DNA from: an uncultured Gammaproteobacteria bacterium
Lineage (GTDB): Bacteria > Patescibacteriota > Patescibacteriia > UBA2591 > UBA6264
Length of the DNA: 12,722 nt
Assembly (NCBI GenBank): GCA_964507075.1
Contig: CAZDOL010000003.1
Location: forward strand, 17,424 to 30,145
Direction: 5' to 3'
Program-made: the position numbers and the translations under genes
Notes under the pieces: generated by a model
What the model saw: the letters and a program-made list of their open reading frames with translations, nothing else
Database searches by the model: none
Told to the model about the DNA's origin: nothing
In this document: positions 5,917 through 12,515 of the stretch, piece by piece
Numbering within the stretch: the first letter of the stretch is position 1
Layout of the letters: the number at the start of each line of letters is the position of its first letter

Positions 5917-6843
5917 TTAAAATAATTTAGTTTGTTTTTTTTCTGCAGTTAAAGTGCTTAATTTTTTGGCCAAACTTTTAAATCCTAGTTTTTCAAAATT
6001 TTTTAAAGCTTTTTCTGTATTTGTTTTTAAAACCCGACAATTTTGTAGTACTGATATATTTATTCCAGGAGCTTTGTCTTGTATGGTTACTAGCATTTTA
6101 TTTAGGATAATTTTTTTCTTGTTTTTTATAAGATTTTGTGTTAAAGATTCTTTTATTAAATTTTCTGGTTGACTATGGGAGGGCTTTTCTAAATATTGGT
6201 AAACATTTTCTATGTTTCCGAATTTTTTAATTAATCCTGATGCTGTCTTGAGTCCTACTTTCATTAAACCAGAAATATTATCTGAGGGGTCGCCAACTAA
6301 GGCCTTAAGGTCAATTATTTGTTCGGGTGAAACACCAAAACGCTCAAAAACCTCCGAGGAATTATAAATTTTATTTTGTTTTAATCCTTGTTGTAGAAAA
6401 TAAACCTCTGTCCGAGCATCTACTAATTGCAATAAATCTAAATCGCCAGTGATGATTCTGGCGCTCAGGTTATTGATTTCTTTTTTTGTATTATTTAGAG
6501 CCCCTATCAAATCGTCAGCTTCTAACCCATCTTGACTAAATGATTTTATGTCAAAACTTTCTAAAACCGATTTTGCCCAAGGAATTTGTTTGTAAAATTC
6601 AAGTGGTTGAGAAACTCTATTGGCTTTATATTCTTTATATTCTTTATGTCGAAAGGTTGGTGCTTTGGTGTCAAACGCAACTGCCAAATAGTCTGGCTTA
6701 TCTTTATATAATATTCTTAAAAGAAGAGAAGTGAAACCATAAACTGCGTTAATTGTTTGTCCTTTGAAATTTTTTAGCTTAGGAAGGGCGTGCCAAGCGC
6801 GATGAAGGACAGCAGAAGCGTCAATGATAATAAATTTTTCCAT
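5917..6843 (-). CDS. Stand-alone 5'-3' exonuclease / flap endonuclease (Pol I N-terminal domain homologue, no polymerase domain)
   Basis: IIDASAVLHRAWHAL, GQTINAVYGF, AVAFDTKAPTFRHKEYKEYKANR, EADDLIGAL, TGDLDLLQLV and LVGDPSDNISG are the conserved 5'-nuclease and H3TH motifs. The ORF ends at 308 aa. Confidence 0.85.
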   Translation of the reverse strand: MEKFIIIDASAVLHRAWHALPKLKNFKGQTINAVYGFTSLLLRILYKDKPDYLAVAFDTKAPTFRHKEYKEYKANRVSQPLEFYKQIPWAKSVLESFDIKSFSQDGLEADDLIGALNNTKKEINNLSARIITGDLDLLQLVDARTEVYFLQQGLKQNKIYNSSEVFERFGVSPEQIIDLKALVGDPSDNISGLMKVGLKTASGLIKKFGNIENVYQYLEKPSHSQPENLIKESLTQNLIKNKKKIILNKMLVTIQDKAPGINISVLQNCRVLKTNTEKALKNFEKLGFKSLAKKLSTLTAEKKQTKLF

Positions 6844-6864
6844 ATGGTTTTAAAAAATTGGAAG

Positions 6865-6937
6865 AGGCCAGGACGGGAGTCGAACCCGTGTATATCGGTT
6901 TTGCAAACCGACGCCTTAGCCACTTGGCTACCTGGCC
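6865..6937 (-). tRNA. tRNA-Cys (anticodon GCA), 73 nt, no encoded CCA
   Basis: Minus-strand read: GGCCAGG-TA-GCCAAGTGGCTAAGGCG-TCGGT-TTGCAAA-ACCGA-TATAC-ACGGG-TTCGACT-CCCGT-CCTGGCC-T. It has a 7-bp acceptor, 5-bp anticodon and T stems, anticodon GCA and discriminator U73 typical of tRNA-Cys. The 3' flank is CTTCC. Confidence 0.9.
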
Positions 6938-6998
6938 CTATTTTAAGCTTGCTTTATTTTTACTTTAGCAAAAAAATGTCTTTTTGTCCATGAGAGTC

Positions 6999-7021
6999 AC
7001 TTGGGAGTCCGACTCCCAAGT
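6999..7021. repeat. Hairpin palindrome copy 1 (ACTTGGGAGT-CCG-ACTCCCAAGT), 10 nt downstream of the HUH gene stop
   Basis: Perfect 10-bp stem with a 3-nt loop. Left flank is gaGTCAC. Confidence 0.9.
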
Positions 7022-7031
7022 AGGAATTACT

Positions 7032-7739
7032 CTAATATTCTAATAAAAGTTTTTTAATTTGTTTATTTTCTTTTATTTCTTTTAAAGAATCTTTGGTAAA
7101 TCCTTTGTAATCCTCTATGTTGCCAAATTGATCTAATATAATATCCTTTTCACAAAAATCCTTTTTATTTTTATTGTCATTGTCCTCAACATATTCTTCC
7201 CAGCTTGATTTAATTAACTTGGGAGTCCGACTCCCAAGTAAATTATAATCATGGACCTTGTAATTTAAATTAATATAGGCGCTTAGGTGCAATAAATACT
7301 CATTAGAATCTATATGGATTGCTTTATATTTTCCTTGACACAATGACCCGCTTCGTTTGTATTTCTCATTAAAATAATTCGTATATCCTGTTCCTATCTT
7401 GTGCATGAATTTTGGAATTCCGTCGTCAACTAATTGTTGTAAAAGAAAATGGTAATGATTTGGATTTAAGCAATAACAAACAAAATTAACCAATTTGTCT
7501 TTTTTTAACTTGAAAGTTGTTGATTTGGGAGTCCGACTCCCAAGTGATGTTTTTTCTTTAATATTTATCCTTGTAAAAGAATTTTCGTAGATACTGCCTA
7601 TTGGGTCAATGATATTAAATTCATCCATGCTTTGGAAAAATCGTCTTAAGTCGTTTTTGTTTTTAAAAATAATTCGTTTGTCTACTCCACGATTGTAGAT
7701 GTGATAATATTCTTCATTAATAAATGTAGGATTTTTCAT
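7032..7739 (-). CDS. HUH/Y1 single-strand DNA transposase-like protein (IS200/IS605 TnpA-related, REP-associated tyrosine transposase-like)
   Basis: 235 aa. The N-terminal YHIYNRGVDKRIIF matches the family's first strand. The HUH motif is NPNHYHFLLQ (HYH at 7449-7457). It also has GSLCQGKYKAIHIDSNEYLLHLSAYINLNY (compare RxGxLWQxRF...YLLxxxRYIhxNP, with the catalytic Tyr in YINLN). Assignment is from motif memory, not an HMM run. Confidence 0.72.
   Translation of the reverse strand: MKNPTFINEEYYHIYNRGVDKRIIFKNKNDLRRFFQSMDEFNIIDPIGSIYENSFTRINIKEKTSLGSRTPKSTTFKLKKDKLVNFVCYCLNPNHYHFLLQQLVDDGIPKFMHKIGTGYTNYFNEKYKRSGSLCQGKYKAIHIDSNEYLLHLSAYINLNYKVHDYNLLGSRTPKLIKSSWEEYVEDNDNKNKKDFCEKDIILDQFGNIEDYKGFTKDSLKEIKENKQIKKLLLEY
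7217..7239. repeat. Hairpin palindrome copy 2, inside the HUH ORF (codons 168-174, LGSRTPK)
   Basis: ACTTGGGAGTCCGACTCCCAAGT, a perfect 10-bp stem. The minus-strand reading ctt ggg agt cgg act ccc aag is in the gene's frame. Confidence 0.9.
7523..7545. repeat. Hairpin palindrome copy 3, inside the HUH ORF (codons 66-72, LGSRTPK)
   Basis: ATTTGGGAGTCCGACTCCCAAGT with one stem mismatch (T7524/G7544). It shares the extra right flank GTGATGTT with copy 4. Confidence 0.9.
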
Positions 7740-7755
7740 ATATTATATTTTATTT

Positions 7756-7778
7756 ACTTGGGAGTCCGACTCCCAAGT
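7756..7778. repeat. Hairpin palindrome copy 4, 17 nt upstream of the HUH gene start
   Basis: ACTTGGGAGTCCGACTCCCAAGT followed by GATGTT. The stem can extend to about 12 bp with one T/G pair. Confidence 0.9.
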
Positions 7779-7829
7779 GATGTTCCTATTGTAGCAGAAG
7801 AATAAGTATTTGTAAAAAATTGAAATTTT

Positions 7830-7850
7830 TTTGGAAGTCCGACTCCCAAA
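7830..7850. repeat. Hairpin palindrome copy 5 (degenerate), between the queA stop and copy 4
   Basis: TTTGGAAGTCCGACTCCCAAA with one mismatch (A7835/C7845). On a minus-strand transcript this becomes a G-U wobble. Confidence 0.75.
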
Positions 7851-7887
7851 CTTTTCTCTTTAAACAATTGGGTCCTAAATTTTTGTT

Positions 7888-8904
7888 TTACATGATGAGC
7901 ATGGCGTCGCCAAAGGAATAAAAGCGATACTTCTTCTTTATGGCTTCGGCATAAGCTTGTAAAATAAATTCTCTTCCAGCAAAAGCTGAAACAAGCATTA
8001 GTAATGTTGATTTTGGGAGATGAAAATTAGTAATTAGCCCGTCAATGAATTTAAATTTATATCCAGGATAGATAAAGGTTTGAATTGATTTAGCTCCAGT
8101 TTTTAGGATATGATTATGAGAAGAAAATGCCTCTAAAACCCGACAAGAGGTAGTGCCCACGGCTATTATATTTTTTATTTCTTTTTTAGCTTTGTTTAAT
8201 TGTTGAGCGATTGGCCTTTTTATTTCTCCCCACTCAGAATGCATTTGGTGATTTTCAATGTTTTCGGTTCTTACTGGCTGAAAAGTACCAAATCCAACAT
8301 GTAAGGTGACAAAATGCATATCTATTCCAATTGTTTTTAATTTTTGGATGATTTTTTTTGTAAAATGAAAGCCGGCAGTGGGCGCAGCAGATGACCCAGG
8401 CTGTTGCGCATAGATGGTTTGATATTCATGCAGATTAGATTTTCTTTTAATATAGGGGGGCGTAGGAGTTTCTCCCGCTTTTTTTAATTCTTTTTGCAAA
8501 CCTCCTTGAGGAGCGATGAATTTTATCGCCCAAGTTTGCTCTGATAGTTGTTTCTCAAGAATTCCGAACAACTTTTCATTAAAATGAATTCTTAAATTTA
8601 ATTTTCCCTTCCCTTTTAATATTATCTCCCAGCAATCATTTTTTAGTTGTTTTAGTAATAAAATTTCAGCCTTGCCTTTAGTTGGTTTTTTTCCGTTCAA
8701 GCGCGCGGGAATTACTTTAGAATTATTAGCCACCAAAACAGAGTTTGGTTTTATATATTTGTTTATATTATAAAAATAGTCATGAGTTATGCTTTTTTCT
8801 TTTCGATTTAAAATCATTAGCCTCGAACAATCTCGAGGCCTTATTGGTTTTTGCGCTATTAAATTTATTGGCAAATAATAATTAAATTTTTTTAAACTTA
8901 ACAT
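7888..8904 (-). CDS. queA: S-adenosylmethionine:tRNA ribosyltransferase-isomerase (queuosine biosynthesis)
   Basis: FNYYLPINLIAQKPIRPRDCSRLMIL is the N-terminal signature. PTPPYIKR, AAPTAGFHFT, VTLHVGFGTFQPV, AVGTTSCRVLE and FYSFGDAMLI match conserved QueA blocks. Confidence 0.95.
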   Translation of the reverse strand: MLSLKKFNYYLPINLIAQKPIRPRDCSRLMILNRKEKSITHDYFYNINKYIKPNSVLVANNSKVIPARLNGKKPTKGKAEILLLKQLKNDCWEIILKGKGKLNLRIHFNEKLFGILEKQLSEQTWAIKFIAPQGGLQKELKKAGETPTPPYIKRKSNLHEYQTIYAQQPGSSAAPTAGFHFTKKIIQKLKTIGIDMHFVTLHVGFGTFQPVRTENIENHQMHSEWGEIKRPIAQQLNKAKKEIKNIIAVGTTSCRVLEAFSSHNHILKTGAKSIQTFIYPGYKFKFIDGLITNFHLPKSTLLMLVSAFAGREFILQAYAEAIKKKYRFYSFGDAMLIM

Positions 8905-9801
8905 TTAGGTTTTAGTATATTTATTAATAGCTAATGTGCTGGCAATCATAGAAACAATGACTGCGAATATTAAGAGAGCTGTCCAAAATTCAAAACTTTG
9001 ATTTTGTAAATAAAGAGATATACTAAAGTCCATTTGTAGAAAATTTTTAATTTGAGGTTGGATAAATATGGAAAGTGGCCAAATTATGCCGATATTCAAA
9101 AGCCAAGCCACAATAGCATAAAGAGAGCCCTCTATCAAGAAAGGGGCTCTAATAAACCAAGAAGAAGCCCCCACAAGACGCATTATTCTGATTTCTTTCT
9201 TGCGAGAAATAGCTCCTAATTTTATAGCAGTAAAGATGACTAAGATGGCTATTAAAAGGAATAGTCCACTTATAATTAAACCAACTTGATAGATTTTTTT
9301 ATTGAATTTATTAAAAATTTTAATAAGCTCTTCGTAGTCATAAAAATTTTGGTCATGTATTAAACCTTGGTATTGCTCTTGATTGATAATTCCCATAGTC
9401 CTTTGATATTCAGCTGGATTTTGGAATTTGATAGAGATCACCGCCCCCAAAGGATTCTCGTTTAACTCTTCTAATGAATTTAAGATTATTGAATCTTCTT
9501 GATGCTTTTCTTTAAATTGAACCAAAGATTCTTCTGGGCTTAAATAATTGATTTCTTTGATTTCGTCGCAATTTTTTAGCTCTATTTTAAGTGCATTTAA
9601 TTCGTTCTGGTCTATATTATCTTTAAAATATATCCCTAAGTCCATTTTAGTGGCTATATTGTTCAGAGCTTGAGTGCCAAGAATACTGATGCTATAGAGA
9701 AGGGTTAGCGTAAAGAGCATAAGAAGAATAATAACAATGCTGGTTAGGGATAACCAAAAATTACGAAAAAAGTTCTGAAAAGCTAATTTAATAATTTTCA
9801 T
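8905..9801 (-). CDS. ftsX: FtsX-like cell-division ABC transporter permease
   Basis: 298 aa with the FtsX layout: TM1 (WLSLTSIVIILLMLFTLTLLY), an extracytoplasmic loop of about 130 aa, then three C-terminal TM segments. The motif IRIMRLVGASSWFIRAPFLIEG is typical of FtsX. Its start overlaps the aspS stop (ATGA at 9798-9801). Its stop directly abuts the queA ATG. Confidence 0.8.
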   Translation of the reverse strand: MKIIKLAFQNFFRNFWLSLTSIVIILLMLFTLTLLYSISILGTQALNNIATKMDLGIYFKDNIDQNELNALKIELKNCDEIKEINYLSPEESLVQFKEKHQEDSIILNSLEELNENPLGAVISIKFQNPAEYQRTMGIINQEQYQGLIHDQNFYDYEELIKIFNKFNKKIYQVGLIISGLFLLIAILVIFTAIKLGAISRKKEIRIMRLVGASSWFIRAPFLIEGSLYAIVAWLLNIGIIWPLSIFIQPQIKNFLQMDFSISLYLQNQSFEFWTALLIFAVIVSMIASTLAINKYTKT

Positions 9802-11219
9802 TTATTTTTAATAACAATTCCTAATTCTTTTAGTTGTTCAACGCTAACCTCACTGGGCGCATCCATCAAAGGGTCTCGAGCGTCAGAAGTTAAAGGAAAT
9901 GCAATTACTTCGCGAATATTTTTTTCATTTAACAATATTGACAAAAATCGGTCTAAGCCAGGGGCAATACCACCGTGCGGAGGTGTACCATGTCGCAAAG
10001 CTTTTAAAAAATGCTCAAATTGTTTTTTTTGTTCTTTTTTAAATCCAATCAGATTAAATATCTTTTCTTGAATGTCTGAGCGATATATTCTCATTGCCCC
10101 TCCTCCTATTTCTATTCCGTTTAATACTAAATCATGTTGGTAGGATTTGACTTTTCCCGGGTTAGAATCTAATAATGGTAAATCTTTTTCTTGTGGTCGA
10201 GTAAACATATTATGAGAAGGCGCCAATTGGTTATTTGCTCCAATAAATTTTTCATTTTCATCAGCTTGATTAACAAAGAGAGGAAAATTTAAAATCCAAG
10301 CAAAAGCTAATTCATCTGGATCTTTTTTATCCTTCCTTAGATCTGGTTTGTCAGTTTTATATTTTTTCATTACTTCCTCATAGTCTAAACGAGGCCAAGG
10401 GGTTTGAGTGATATGCTTTTTTGGAAAAAGTTTAGGAATCATTTTCGTGAACATTTCTTCAGTTAATTTAAGAATATCTTCTTGCTCAATAAAAGACATC
10501 TCAATGTCAATTTGATAGAATTCGCCAGGGGATCGATCTGCACGAGCATCTTCGTCTCTAAAACAAGGGGCGATCTGGAAATATTTTTCTATACCAGAAA
10601 TCATTAGTAGTTGTTTGTATTGTTGTGGAGCTTGCGGCAGGGCAAAAAATTTCCCTTTATGAATGCGTGAGGGAACTAAATAATCTCGAGCTCCTTCTGG
10701 CGTTGATTTAGATAAAATAGGGGTTTGCACTTCCACAAATTCTTTTTCAAACAGGAAATTCCTTACATAATGTAATACCCTTGATCTCATTATTATATTG
10801 TTTTTCATTCTTTCGTGCCTTAAGTCCAAATATCTGTATTTTAATCGCAGTTCTTCCTTGGCTTGTTTTTCTTCACTGTTGACTTCAAAAGGAGGGGTCT
10901 TAGATTCGTTAAGGATGGAAATTTTTTTAGCTAGAATTTCTATGCCTCCAGTTGGTATTTCTTCGTTAACTTGACTTTCTGGCCTTTTATTTACCATTCC
11001 TTCAATTTCCAAAACAAATTCATGTCGAATTTTATCTATTATTCCCAAGGAAACAGGGTCAATTTCTGTTGGAGCTATGATTACCTGAGCCAAACCAGAT
11101 TGGTCACGGAGATCAATAAATATTATTTTTCCTAAATTACGTCTAGAATTCACCCAACCAGAAATTTTAACCATTTTATTAACCTCATTAATAGTTTCTG
11201 TTATTTTAATTCTGTTCAT
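9798..11219 (-). CDS. aspS: Aspartyl-tRNA synthetase, bacterial type but lacking the GAD insertion domain
   Basis: N-terminal OB fold, LRLKYRYLDLR, PSRIHKGKFFALPQAPQQYKQLLM, motif 2 FRDEDARADRSPGEFYQIDIEMSF, YQHDLVLNGIEIGGGAMRIY, and motif 3 GTPPHGGIAPGLDR...IREVIAFP. Only 473 aa. Confidence 0.95.
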   Translation of the reverse strand: MNRIKITETINEVNKMVKISGWVNSRRNLGKIIFIDLRDQSGLAQVIIAPTEIDPVSLGIIDKIRHEFVLEIEGMVNKRPESQVNEEIPTGGIEILAKKISILNESKTPPFEVNSEEKQAKEELRLKYRYLDLRHERMKNNIIMRSRVLHYVRNFLFEKEFVEVQTPILSKSTPEGARDYLVPSRIHKGKFFALPQAPQQYKQLLMISGIEKYFQIAPCFRDEDARADRSPGEFYQIDIEMSFIEQEDILKLTEEMFTKMIPKLFPKKHITQTPWPRLDYEEVMKKYKTDKPDLRKDKKDPDELAFAWILNFPLFVNQADENEKFIGANNQLAPSHNMFTRPQEKDLPLLDSNPGKVKSYQHDLVLNGIEIGGGAMRIYRSDIQEKIFNLIGFKKEQKKQFEHFLKALRHGTPPHGGIAPGLDRFLSILLNEKNIREVIAFPLTSDARDPLMDAPSEVSVEQLKELGIVIKNK

Positions 11220-11222
11220 ATT

Positions 11223-12515
11223 TTAAGGGGTTAAACGATTAATAAGCCGAGGGAATGGTATGGTTTCTCTTATGTGTTTGCGCCCACAAATCCATCCAGT
11301 TAATCTTTCTAGCCCATACCCAAAACCAGAATGAGGAACGGACCCATACTTTCTTAAATCCAAATACCATTGAAACTCCTTAATTGGAATTTTTTCTTTT
11401 ATCATTCGCTCTTTTAATGTTTCATAATCATCTTCTCTTTGGGATGCGCCTATTATTTCTCCATATCCGTCTGGGGCGATAAGATCTGAGCCCAAAACCA
11501 ATCTTGGATTTTTGGGATCTGTTTTCATATAAAAAGCTTTGGTATTTTTTGGCCATTTTTCTATAAAAACAGGCACTTTGCTGTCTTGCGTTATCAATGT
11601 TTCGTCTTCCGCGCCAAAATCATCTCCTAATTTAATCTTAGAACCCATTTTCTGTATTTTTTCAATTGCTTTTTTATATGTGATTCTTTTGAAAGGAGGT
11701 TTAATGTTTTTTAATTTATTTATATCTCTTTCTAATATTATTAACTCTTGTTCGCAATTTTTAAGAATATGACCAACAATATAAGAGATTAATTGTTCTT
11801 GTATTTCCATATTTTCTTTATGCTCTACAAAGGCCATTTCTGCGTCCATCATCCAAAATTCAGTTAAATGCTTACGTGTTTTAGATTTTTCAGCTCTAAA
11901 TGTTGGGCCAAAGTCAAATACTCTATTGTGAGACGCAATTCCTGCCTCTAAATAAAGTTGCCCTGATTGAGATAAGTATGCCTTTCCTAAATGAAAATAC
12001 TTTACCTCAAACAGGGTGGTTGTGTCTTCGCAAGAGGTAGGGGTTAGAATAGGAGCATCAATTTTAATAAAATTGTTTTGCCAAAGAAACTCATAAGTGG
12101 ATTTTATTATCTCGTTTCTTATTCTTTGAATAGCCCATTGTTTTTTATCCCTTAACCAGAGATGACGATAATCTAGCAAGAAGTCAGGGCCATGCTCTTT
12201 CTTGCCAATAGGATATTCGTCAGCTATTTGGTAAATAGTCAAATCATTTATTTGTACTTCAAAAATATCCTTTTTTTGAGGATGTTTTTTAATAATTCCC
12301 TTGATTTCTAATGAGCTTTCTCGGTTGATTTTTTGAGCTTGTTCCCATTGAGAAGAGCTAACTTGTTTTTTTTCTATAATGCCCTGAATGAATCCAGTAC
12401 CGTCTCGTAACTGGATAAACATAATTAACCCTGATGAGCGAACATTGTCTACCCACCCTCGTATAATCACGGATTTACCAAGATGTTTTTTAATGTTTTT
12501 AATCAAAATATACAT
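11223..12515 (-). CDS. asnS: Asparaginyl-tRNA synthetase
   Basis: N-terminal OB fold (VIIRGWVDNVRSSGLIMFIQLRDGTG), AsnRS-type motif 2 FGPTFRAEKSKTRKHLTEFWMMDAEMAF, and motif 3 GSVPHSGFGYGLERL. 430 aa. Confidence 0.95.
   Translation of the reverse strand: MYILIKNIKKHLGKSVIIRGWVDNVRSSGLIMFIQLRDGTGFIQGIIEKKQVSSSQWEQAQKINRESSLEIKGIIKKHPQKKDIFEVQINDLTIYQIADEYPIGKKEHGPDFLLDYRHLWLRDKKQWAIQRIRNEIIKSTYEFLWQNNFIKIDAPILTPTSCEDTTTLFEVKYFHLGKAYLSQSGQLYLEAGIASHNRVFDFGPTFRAEKSKTRKHLTEFWMMDAEMAFVEHKENMEIQEQLISYIVGHILKNCEQELIILERDINKLKNIKPPFKRITYKKAIEKIQKMGSKIKLGDDFGAEDETLITQDSKVPVFIEKWPKNTKAFYMKTDPKNPRLVLGSDLIAPDGYGEIIGASQREDDYETLKERMIKEKIPIKEFQWYLDLRKYGSVPHSGFGYGLERLTGWICGRKHIRETIPFPRLINRLTP

Follow-up and report, generated by a model that had tools for sequence, protein, structure and literature searches.

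The 12,722-nucleotide stretch analyzed here (the window) comes from contig CAZDOL010000003.1 of an uncultured member of the Patescibacteria and carries a gene for a 235-residue Y1 HUH protein, in and around which five copies of one hairpin palindrome are clustered. We counted the palindrome in the window by a pattern search allowing up to 3 mismatches and estimated the chance expectation from 200 shuffles that preserved dinucleotide composition. This search recovered TTGGGAGTCCGACTCCCAA exactly at positions 7001, 7219, 7525 and 7758 and with one mismatch at 7831, i.e. five copies within 850 bp, four of them exact, against 0.00 matches in the shuffled window. Allowing as many as 3 mismatches revealed no other match to TTGGGAGTCCGACTCCCAA in the 12,722 bases, in agreement with an earlier reading of this DNA from its letters alone (the original prediction), which had reported five copies here and none elsewhere in the 12.7 kb. 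The full repeat unit is of 23 nt, ACTTGGGAGT-CCG-ACTCCCAAGT, and its 10-bp stem and 3-nt loop are likewise as had been proposed. When folded as DNA, four of the five copies reach -7 to -11.5 kcal/mol with z-scores of -4.2 to -8.3, and the fifth, mismatched copy folds weakly (-4.7 kcal/mol, z -1.3). The gene had been described as surrounded by the five hairpins; this is right for the flanking copies, but two of the five, unnoticed until now, lie inside the open reading frame (ORF), in frame with it, and both are translated as LGSRTPK. These in-frame intragenic copies are the most informative feature of the locus. Below, the copy just 5' of the gene is called hairpin U, the two intragenic copies, in the order of translation, A and B, and the copy just 3' of the gene D (Table 1). 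TCAC stands left of hairpin D and GTGA right of hairpin U, as previously noted, and GTGA also follows the intragenic hairpin A.

Table 1. Features of the hairpin locus in the window; fractions refer to the 81 loci compared in the text
Feature	Position	Strand	Description
Y1 HUH (TnpA_Y1/RAYT-like) gene	7032..7739	-	235 aa; ORF translation, Pfam Y1_Tnp, alignment, AlphaFold and Foldseek
Hairpin U	7756..7778	.	exact copy within the predicted promoter, 17 nt 5' of ATG; equivalent hairpin in 68/81 loci
Hairpin A	7523..7545	.	exact core, in frame, LGSRTPK at aa 66-72, before the HUH motif; equivalent in 48/81 loci
Hairpin B	7217..7239	.	exact, in frame, LGSRTPK at aa 168-174, between the Tyr helix and SSW; equivalent in 47/81 loci
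Hairpin D	6999..7021	.	exact, 10 nt past the stop codon, flanks TCAC/GTAG; equivalent in 55/81 loci
Fifth, degenerate copy	7831..7849	.	1 mismatch, weak fold; 73 nt upstream of hairpin U
Promoter-like site on hairpin U	7747..7776	-	-35 TTGGGA (left arm), 18-nt spacer, -10 TAAAAT, 7 nt to ATG at 7739; promoter scan
Second promoter-like site	7788..7816	-	TTTACA-17-TACAAT with TG, between the fifth copy and hairpin U; consensus match only

The gene encodes an intact Y1 HUH protein, in which the segments NHYHF and SAYINLN contain the HUH motif (H95-Y96-H97) and the residue that we assign as the catalytic tyrosine (Y155 in YINLN), accompanied by an FQ/CQ motif at Q135 and an SSW motif at 178-180. 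Residues 76-157 match positions 33-119 of the 121 in the Pfam profile Y1_Tnp (PF01797) with 28.8 bits against a cut-off of 23 (E 1.5e-6), and an alignment of 24 homologues showed N94, H95, Y96, H97, Q135, Y155, N157, N159, S179 and W180 to be invariant. In the same 24 homologues Y155-I-N-L-N159 is followed by Y, H or D and never by P, i.e. the class-2 signature Y---NP is absent. The AlphaFold model, with a predicted template-modelling score (pTM) of 0.65 and a confidently modelled core, places the HUH motif on a strand (95-102) and the tyrosine on a helix (146-157); both hairpin-encoded peptides fall into surface-loop segments with a predicted local distance difference score (pLDDT) below 50, at aa 48-79 and aa 166-175, which would be suited to tolerating such an insert. 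A Foldseek search with this model against the PDB returned as its top match 4er8_A, the Escherichia coli REP-associated tyrosine transposase (RAYT) with its repetitive extragenic palindrome (REP) hairpin (E 4.3e-4, probability 1.0, TM(target) 0.58), followed by 2a6m, 2vjv and 2xm3, the TnpA proteins of IS608 and ISDra2. The profile match, the invariant residues and this structural match bear out the claim of the original prediction that the gene is of the Y1/HUH type, with an HUH motif and a tyrosine motif. A database search recovered 4,855 homologues, which, where names are given, are described as a 'transposase' or 'RayT' of Patescibacteria, Parcubacteria or Yonathbacteria, and an exhaustive profile search yielded 800 clusters at 50% identity with E <= 1e-30. 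The gene of the window itself lies in a Patescibacteria organism, in line with the host of the candidate phyla radiation (CPR) type that had been envisaged.

To place the hairpins in a wider context we compared 80 related metagenomic loci with the window (81 loci in all), using a strict hairpin criterion that requires a 3-nt loop. Most of these loci have perfect hairpins, specific to the locus, at four conserved places: U about 35-70 nt 5' of the start, A at about +160 to +190, B at about +430 to +480, and D just after the stop. Eight loci that fall outside the 3-nt-loop criterion nevertheless bear elements at these sites, with a 7-bp outer stem and a larger apex whose orientation flips between copies. 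When the close loci were reduced to 75 non-redundant ones, all four sites were occupied in 23, both A and B in 29, and there was at least one intragenic copy in 59; some relatives are without site A altogether. Frequent as it is in this close clade, we rejected the two-site intragenic layout as a universal one, the count being ~16 of 130 diverse family representatives. Additional upstream copies, like the fifth copy of the window, occur in loci L061, L071, L075, L093 and L131. At the protein level the alignment of 24 homologues displays a 7-residue peptide at the same two positions, which differs between homologues and is repeated within each of them (e.g. FRSSAPK, LRSSASQ, MRGSASH and LGNSVSK), and each of these peptides back-translates to a palindrome.

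The hairpins conform to the consensus (C)ACTTGG-NNRY-nnn-RYNN-CCAAGT(G), of which the outer six pairs (ACTTGG/CCAAGT) are constant throughout the family, unlike the four inner pairs and the loop, which vary between loci and match within a locus. Non-coding copies have feet of the form 5' YYAC-TTGG...CCAA-GT[GA][GA] 3', so that GTRR stands 3' and pairs with the foot on the 5' side, and intragenic copies have CAAC...GTTG; the 5'-foot tetranucleotide GT[AG]G of the class-2 RAYTs is absent from the family. Loop polarity is the same in U and D at 25 loci and flipped at 23, and for A and B it is the same at 19 and flipped at 8. Hence the proposal that the bracketing copies behave as inverted termini does not hold as a rule of the family. 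The loops tga, taa and tag occur in 9 non-coding copies and in none of the in-frame ones. Many copies sit at the apex of longer palindromes with locus-specific outer arms of up to 24 bp (L018:6175-6220, L028:5770-5815, L037:7790-7840 and L102 at +626 from the gene start), as in AAAAAGCATCAC[hairpin]GTGATGCTTTTT, which resembles a bidirectional terminator; in the window, the palindrome around hairpin B extends to 17 bp with one mismatch (7211-7245). Such longer palindromes may reflect either a unit that inserts into existing hairpin loops or palindromes that grow outward. Hairpins A and U of the window (7517-7551 and 7750-7784, minus strand) have 8 extra bases in common on one side (AACATCAC), which is unusual, as elsewhere the identity ends at the stem. 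A longer mobile unit with an asymmetric flank, which this shared AACATCAC might suggest, was rejected, since in comparisons across loci nothing beyond the 10-bp stem is shared.

Covariation was measured on 87 distinct intragenic copies against 500 shuffles and against slid alignments. Paired cells make up 86.1% of the observed set and 70.7% in the shuffles, none of the 500 reaching the observed value, and slid controls remain at or below 46%; cells changed on both sides number 235 against 81 in the shuffles. Further, between two and five types of pair are used at each of the four inner positions. From locus to locus the inner stem and loop change, yet within any one locus they match, and therefore both compensatory change and concerted evolution appear to be at work. 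For instance, 1) the proteins of L068 and L076 are 78% identical, and their cores differ at U, A and B in all copies; 2) those of L075 and L095 are 79% identical, and one base pair differs in every copy; and 3) L061, L068 and L106 each contain two hairpin types within one locus. To judge from their sequences, these mixed loci look like intermediates. Because the copies within a locus are normally alike only as far as the end of the 10-bp stem, the homogenized unit can be put at about 23 nt.

The upstream copy U is predicted to form part of a promoter. Of the 68 distinct U copies, 36 have a right foot (...CCAAGTG) that leads directly into TGnTAnnnT at one fixed offset; at A, B and D this arrangement is present 0-2 times. 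With such spacing the left arm TTGGnn is placed 17 nt upstream, in the position of a -35 element, and the right foot supplies the TG of an extended -10. In 27 of 39 cases the -10 is 6-10 nt from the ATG, from which a leaderless mRNA is predicted. Use of the second promoter-like site of the window (Table 1) would place hairpin U in the transcript as a 5' leader. Such an architecture would allow the protein to repress its own promoter by binding the hairpin, as we infer.

Beyond the gene the hairpin is scarce. Exact extra copies are rare in the flanks of the 80 loci, with about 6 lying beyond 700 nt. When one genome of each species was scanned, the identical 19-mer turned up in 46 stretches, almost all from Patescibacteria. 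Among them are at least 8 additional stretches of the Yonathbacteria metagenome-assembled genome (MAG) PFQT01, whose own Y1 gene (L038) bears the 19-mer, and about 17 stretches of the Saccharibacteria MAG CAZYSH01; most of the copies are intergenic, with a few inside large ORFs. In the fetched stretches of CAZYSH01 no Y1 gene was found. This MAG also contains tandem doublets of opposite loop polarity set 4 nt apart (TTGGGAGTCGGACTCCCAA-cgag-TTGGGAGTCCGACTCCCAA; L014:3963-4004, L040:1829-1870 and L009:425-470), an arrangement like that of REPINs or bacterial interspersed mosaic elements (BIMEs), and some of these doublets fall within large ORFs. Patescibacteria lineages as distant as Saccharibacteria and Yonath-, Wolfe-, Vogel-, Niyogi- and Taylorbacteria have an identical 19-nt core (L009-L054), which could reflect either a small usable sequence space or horizontal transfer.

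Taken together, we consider it probable (about 0.7) that the locus is a REPtron-like unit and that its TnpA_Y1 (RAYT-like) HUH nuclease belongs to a large clade of Patescibacteria not described before. By analogy with E. coli TnpA(REP) and IS608 TnpA, the protein would bind the hairpin in single-stranded DNA and cut and rejoin it at the foot. Either this activity or template switching between copies would copy the 23-nt unit from site to site, which would maintain the identity of the copies and now and then give rise to new ones, mostly between genes, while through the copy in the promoter the protein would be able to repress the leaderless transcript from which it is made. The gene itself would be a single-copy chromosomal resident rather than a jumping insertion sequence. 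The characterization of the locus as REP/RAYT-like in the original prediction thus stands insofar as a cognate hairpin accompanies the gene in most of the 80 loci, and falls short in the NCBIfam score and the Y---NP motif. Several observations weigh against our interpretation. 1) Outside the gene locus no further copy of the hairpin was found in about 32 kb of the source genome, including a walk of about 10 kb past each end of the window (about 20 kb added); dispersed copies, few in number and mostly intergenic, were seen in some related genomes only. 2) The NCBIfam equivalog model NF047646 (REP_Tyr_transpos) gives 20.8 bits, below its cut-off of 80. 3) A sequence-profile search of the PDB with the homologue alignment found no TnpA, and hence the fold search was needed, for which the structural model is of moderate quality (mean pLDDT 65). 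4) The repeated peptide is present at both sites in only about 12% of the diverse representatives. 5) The palindrome is perfect and without consistent strand asymmetry, whereas characterized TnpA(REP) enzymes show strand specificity and rely on a 5' GTAG or on bases of the loop (PMC8266576). 6) Covariation alone does not prove a hairpin, as a symmetric dimer on duplex DNA would also keep the half-sites complementary. 7) Binding, cleavage, the site of cleavage, catalysis and autoregulation are all features that we infer.

An unlikely but more far-reaching variant is that the main substrate of the nuclease is its own gene. In that case the four fixed hairpins would serve as sites of self-directed single-strand cleavage and rejoining that keep the copies identical, and the 306-nt segment between A and B, which comprises the whole HUH-Tyr core, could be reversibly excised or inverted, giving a self-editing on/off cassette that is also repressed at its hairpin-built promoter. 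If true, this would be a closed-loop REPtron with almost no genomic REPs, and perhaps the minimal ancestral state of REP/RAYT systems. The exact protein is encoded on 17 contigs (JGI, ENA and NCBI), and it has the same neighbors at all 8 places listed, namely QueA on one side and tRNA-Cys and a 5'-3' exonuclease on the other. These eight contigs differ at a single position over the 1.37-kb locus, and accordingly no excision or inversion variants were seen among them.

It is rather improbable that the palindromes are regulatory only, i.e. a duplex operator for a dimeric regulator together with terminator or mRNA stem-loops, which would be linked to the gene through expression control and would not be Y1 substrates. 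The overlap of hairpin U with the -35 to -10 region would suit such a role, as would those D copies that lie at the apex of terminator-like stems with an A-tract and a T-tract, e.g. in L102, and the palindromy that a symmetric dimer would likewise preserve. However, there is no G:U wobble signature, as the excess of G:T over A:C mismatches that we sought on the sense strand was not found (1 against 12 at site A and 11 against 5 at site B); RNA-level structure was rejected on this ground. A search of Rfam with positions 6800-8000 retrieved the neighboring tRNA only, there is no preference for T-runs after hairpin D across loci, and hairpin U lies 5' of the predicted start of transcription. The missing G:T excess, the flips of loops and apices, the position of U and the lack of an Rfam match together suggest that the element acts as DNA. 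A duplex operator, in turn, is at odds with the locus-specific outward extension of stems to 24 bp, which fits hairpin stability and not half-site recognition by a duplex-binding dimer, and with the identical copies far from the gene in other genomes, both intergenic and inside unrelated ORFs. Additionally, the closest structural relative of the protein is an enzyme crystallized on a DNA hairpin. As far as sequence comparison can tell, the element therefore acts as DNA, and most likely in the form of a hairpin.

Very unlikely, in our assessment, is an autonomous IS200-like insertion sequence, in which the upstream and downstream hairpins would be the left and right ends and the gene would move as a unit. 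A single Y1 gene bracketed by identical subterminal hairpins is indeed the layout of IS200, and in 38 loci longer than 6 kb the neighboring genes of the window were not found beside the homologues, the distant ones of which lie in unrelated neighborhoods. Conserved synteny and tRNA targeting were both rejected, as no neighbor of the window recurs and an adjacent tRNA is present at one locus only. Moreover, L131:5013-5628 and L134:4764-5379 share 616 identical bases of the gene and have unrelated upstream DNA, with a break about 12 nt into the ORF that could represent either a rearrangement or a chimeric assembly. Against mobility of the gene stand the common context and near-identical sequence at all 8 places listed, the retention of the gene between syntenic flanks in L093 and L098 at about 80% nucleotide identity, and the fact that identical proteins are always found in the same context. 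The motif is Y---N and not the Y---Q of subclass 1.1 (PMC6006769), the protein has a 60-aa C-terminal extension, no tnpB is present among the neighboring genes, and the random loop polarity of U and D (25/23) is unfit for left and right ends on the same strand. On these grounds the family appears to behave as a low-copy REP system around a single resident gene, and not as an insertion sequence. The notion that the enzyme needs a duplicated LGxxxxK peptide, with the palindromy of the DNA being incidental, accounts for the recurrence of the peptide at the same two positions in many homologues, but is hardly tenable given that this 23-mer is also present in non-coding sequence to either side of the gene and at dispersed sites, that the peptide varies freely between relatives with self-complementarity kept, that loop flips change its middle residue, that both peptides lie in low-confidence loops, and that site A is missing from some relatives.

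The region also presents a few features of assembly and gene content. Several independent assemblies end about 50-150 nt from the upstream hairpins, at the end of queA (window ~7890-7900; ends of L138 and L139, starts of L005, L007 and L008), and the palindrome cluster thus seems to fragment assemblies. In comparison with L001-L003, the single-cell assembly L004 (ASNW01000003.1) has the region fused to the upstream genes in an inverted duplicate, with the 430-aa aminoacyl-tRNA synthetase broken into pieces of 257 and 290 aa, which looks like amplification or an assembly chimera rather than biology. At 9798-12515 on the minus strand, the window encodes two adjacent paralogous class II aminoacyl-tRNA synthetases of 473 and 430 aa, each combining tRNA-synt_2 with an OB anticodon-binding domain. 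The DnaB replicative helicase of the source organism, about 5 kb beyond the window (L001:1-902, L138:2994-5678), contains an intein that includes a LAGLIDADG domain.

For subclass 2.4 of their classification of TnpA_Y1 proteins, Quentin et al. (2018; PMC6006769), who also described 'double foot' REPs, have reported REPs that lie in frame within the very tnpA(REP) gene they accompany, and hence we regard the present system as a variant of the known REP/RAYT system and not as a new kind. Subclass 2.4 (the group 4 RAYTs of Bertels, from Cyanobacteria and Bacteroidetes; PMC6006769) resembles it in having a Y1 HUH gene, here apparently also of low copy number, flanked by cognate palindromes, copies within tnpA(REP) that do not break the frame and lie in predicted peripheral loops, and 'double foot' palindromes whose feet pair with each other. 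It differs in several respects: 1) here the insertions are at two fixed sites, before the HUH motif (aa 66-72) and after the Tyr helix (aa 168-174), which sets the family outside the subclass as defined; 2) the motifs are NHYH, [FC]Q, YINLN and SSW here, and NH[IFV]H, WQ and YIxNNP there (PMC6006769); 3) the feet run 5' YYAC...GTRR 3' here, and 5' GT[AG]G...C[TC]AC 3' there (PMC6006769); 4) the host belongs to another phylum and one copy is built into what we predict to be the promoter. Three tested features, namely Y---NP, the 5' GT[AG]G foot and the NCBIfam score, place the family outside the RAYTs in the strict sense.

With the E. coli TnpA(REP)/RAYT and its REP/BIME elements (4ER8; PMC8266576), the top structural match, the family shares the HUH and Tyr residues, a gene (here presumably single-copy) flanked by cognate hairpins and the co-evolution of enzyme and hairpin, although sequence similarity to it is too low for the NCBIfam model or a PDB profile search. 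Corneloup et al. (2021; PMC8266576) demonstrated the strand specificity of TnpA(REP) enzymes, which recognize GTAG, bulges or loop bases. In E. coli the REPs are imperfect, bulged and strand-specific, with a 5' GTAG and hundreds of extragenic copies (PMC8266576), whereas here the palindrome is perfect with a 3-nt loop, has no strand polarity and is found in few or no copies away from the gene. The TnpA of the IS200/IS605 group (IS608, ISDra2) has the same fold and subterminal hairpins on both sides of the gene; its Y---Q motif, minimal protein of ~150 aa, many identical copies, left and right ends on the same strand and frequent tnpB are not seen here. In-frame REPs in other genes were described by Di Nocera et al. 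(2013; PMC3733652). The Rickettsia palindromic elements (RPEs) and the GTAG REPs of Opitutus (PMC3733652) are comparable in that short palindromes are tolerated in frame, as they are among the dispersed copies of the Saccharibacteria MAG; these elements are scattered over host genes, whereas in the present family they take conserved positions in the gene of the nuclease itself. Our literature search found no paper on RAYT systems of this type in CPR/Patescibacteria.

At present such genes in Patescibacteria are annotated as 'transposase' or 'hypothetical', and several of the source assemblies end just before the hairpin cluster. The role of RAYTs in the cell is still open, partly because the model systems carry hundreds of REPs. 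The family described here offers a stripped-down case, in genomes of about 1 Mb, with presumably one gene, four or five hairpins at defined places and a perfect 23-nt unit as the presumed substrate. It further provides natural variants of specificity, in the form of dozens of inner-stem types over hundreds of 50%-identity clusters. Thus, it would make three questions accessible to experiment with oligonucleotides and reporter constructs: how a Y1 nuclease reads its hairpin, whether it homogenizes the copies, and whether such a gene may regulate itself through a promoter built on its own hairpin.

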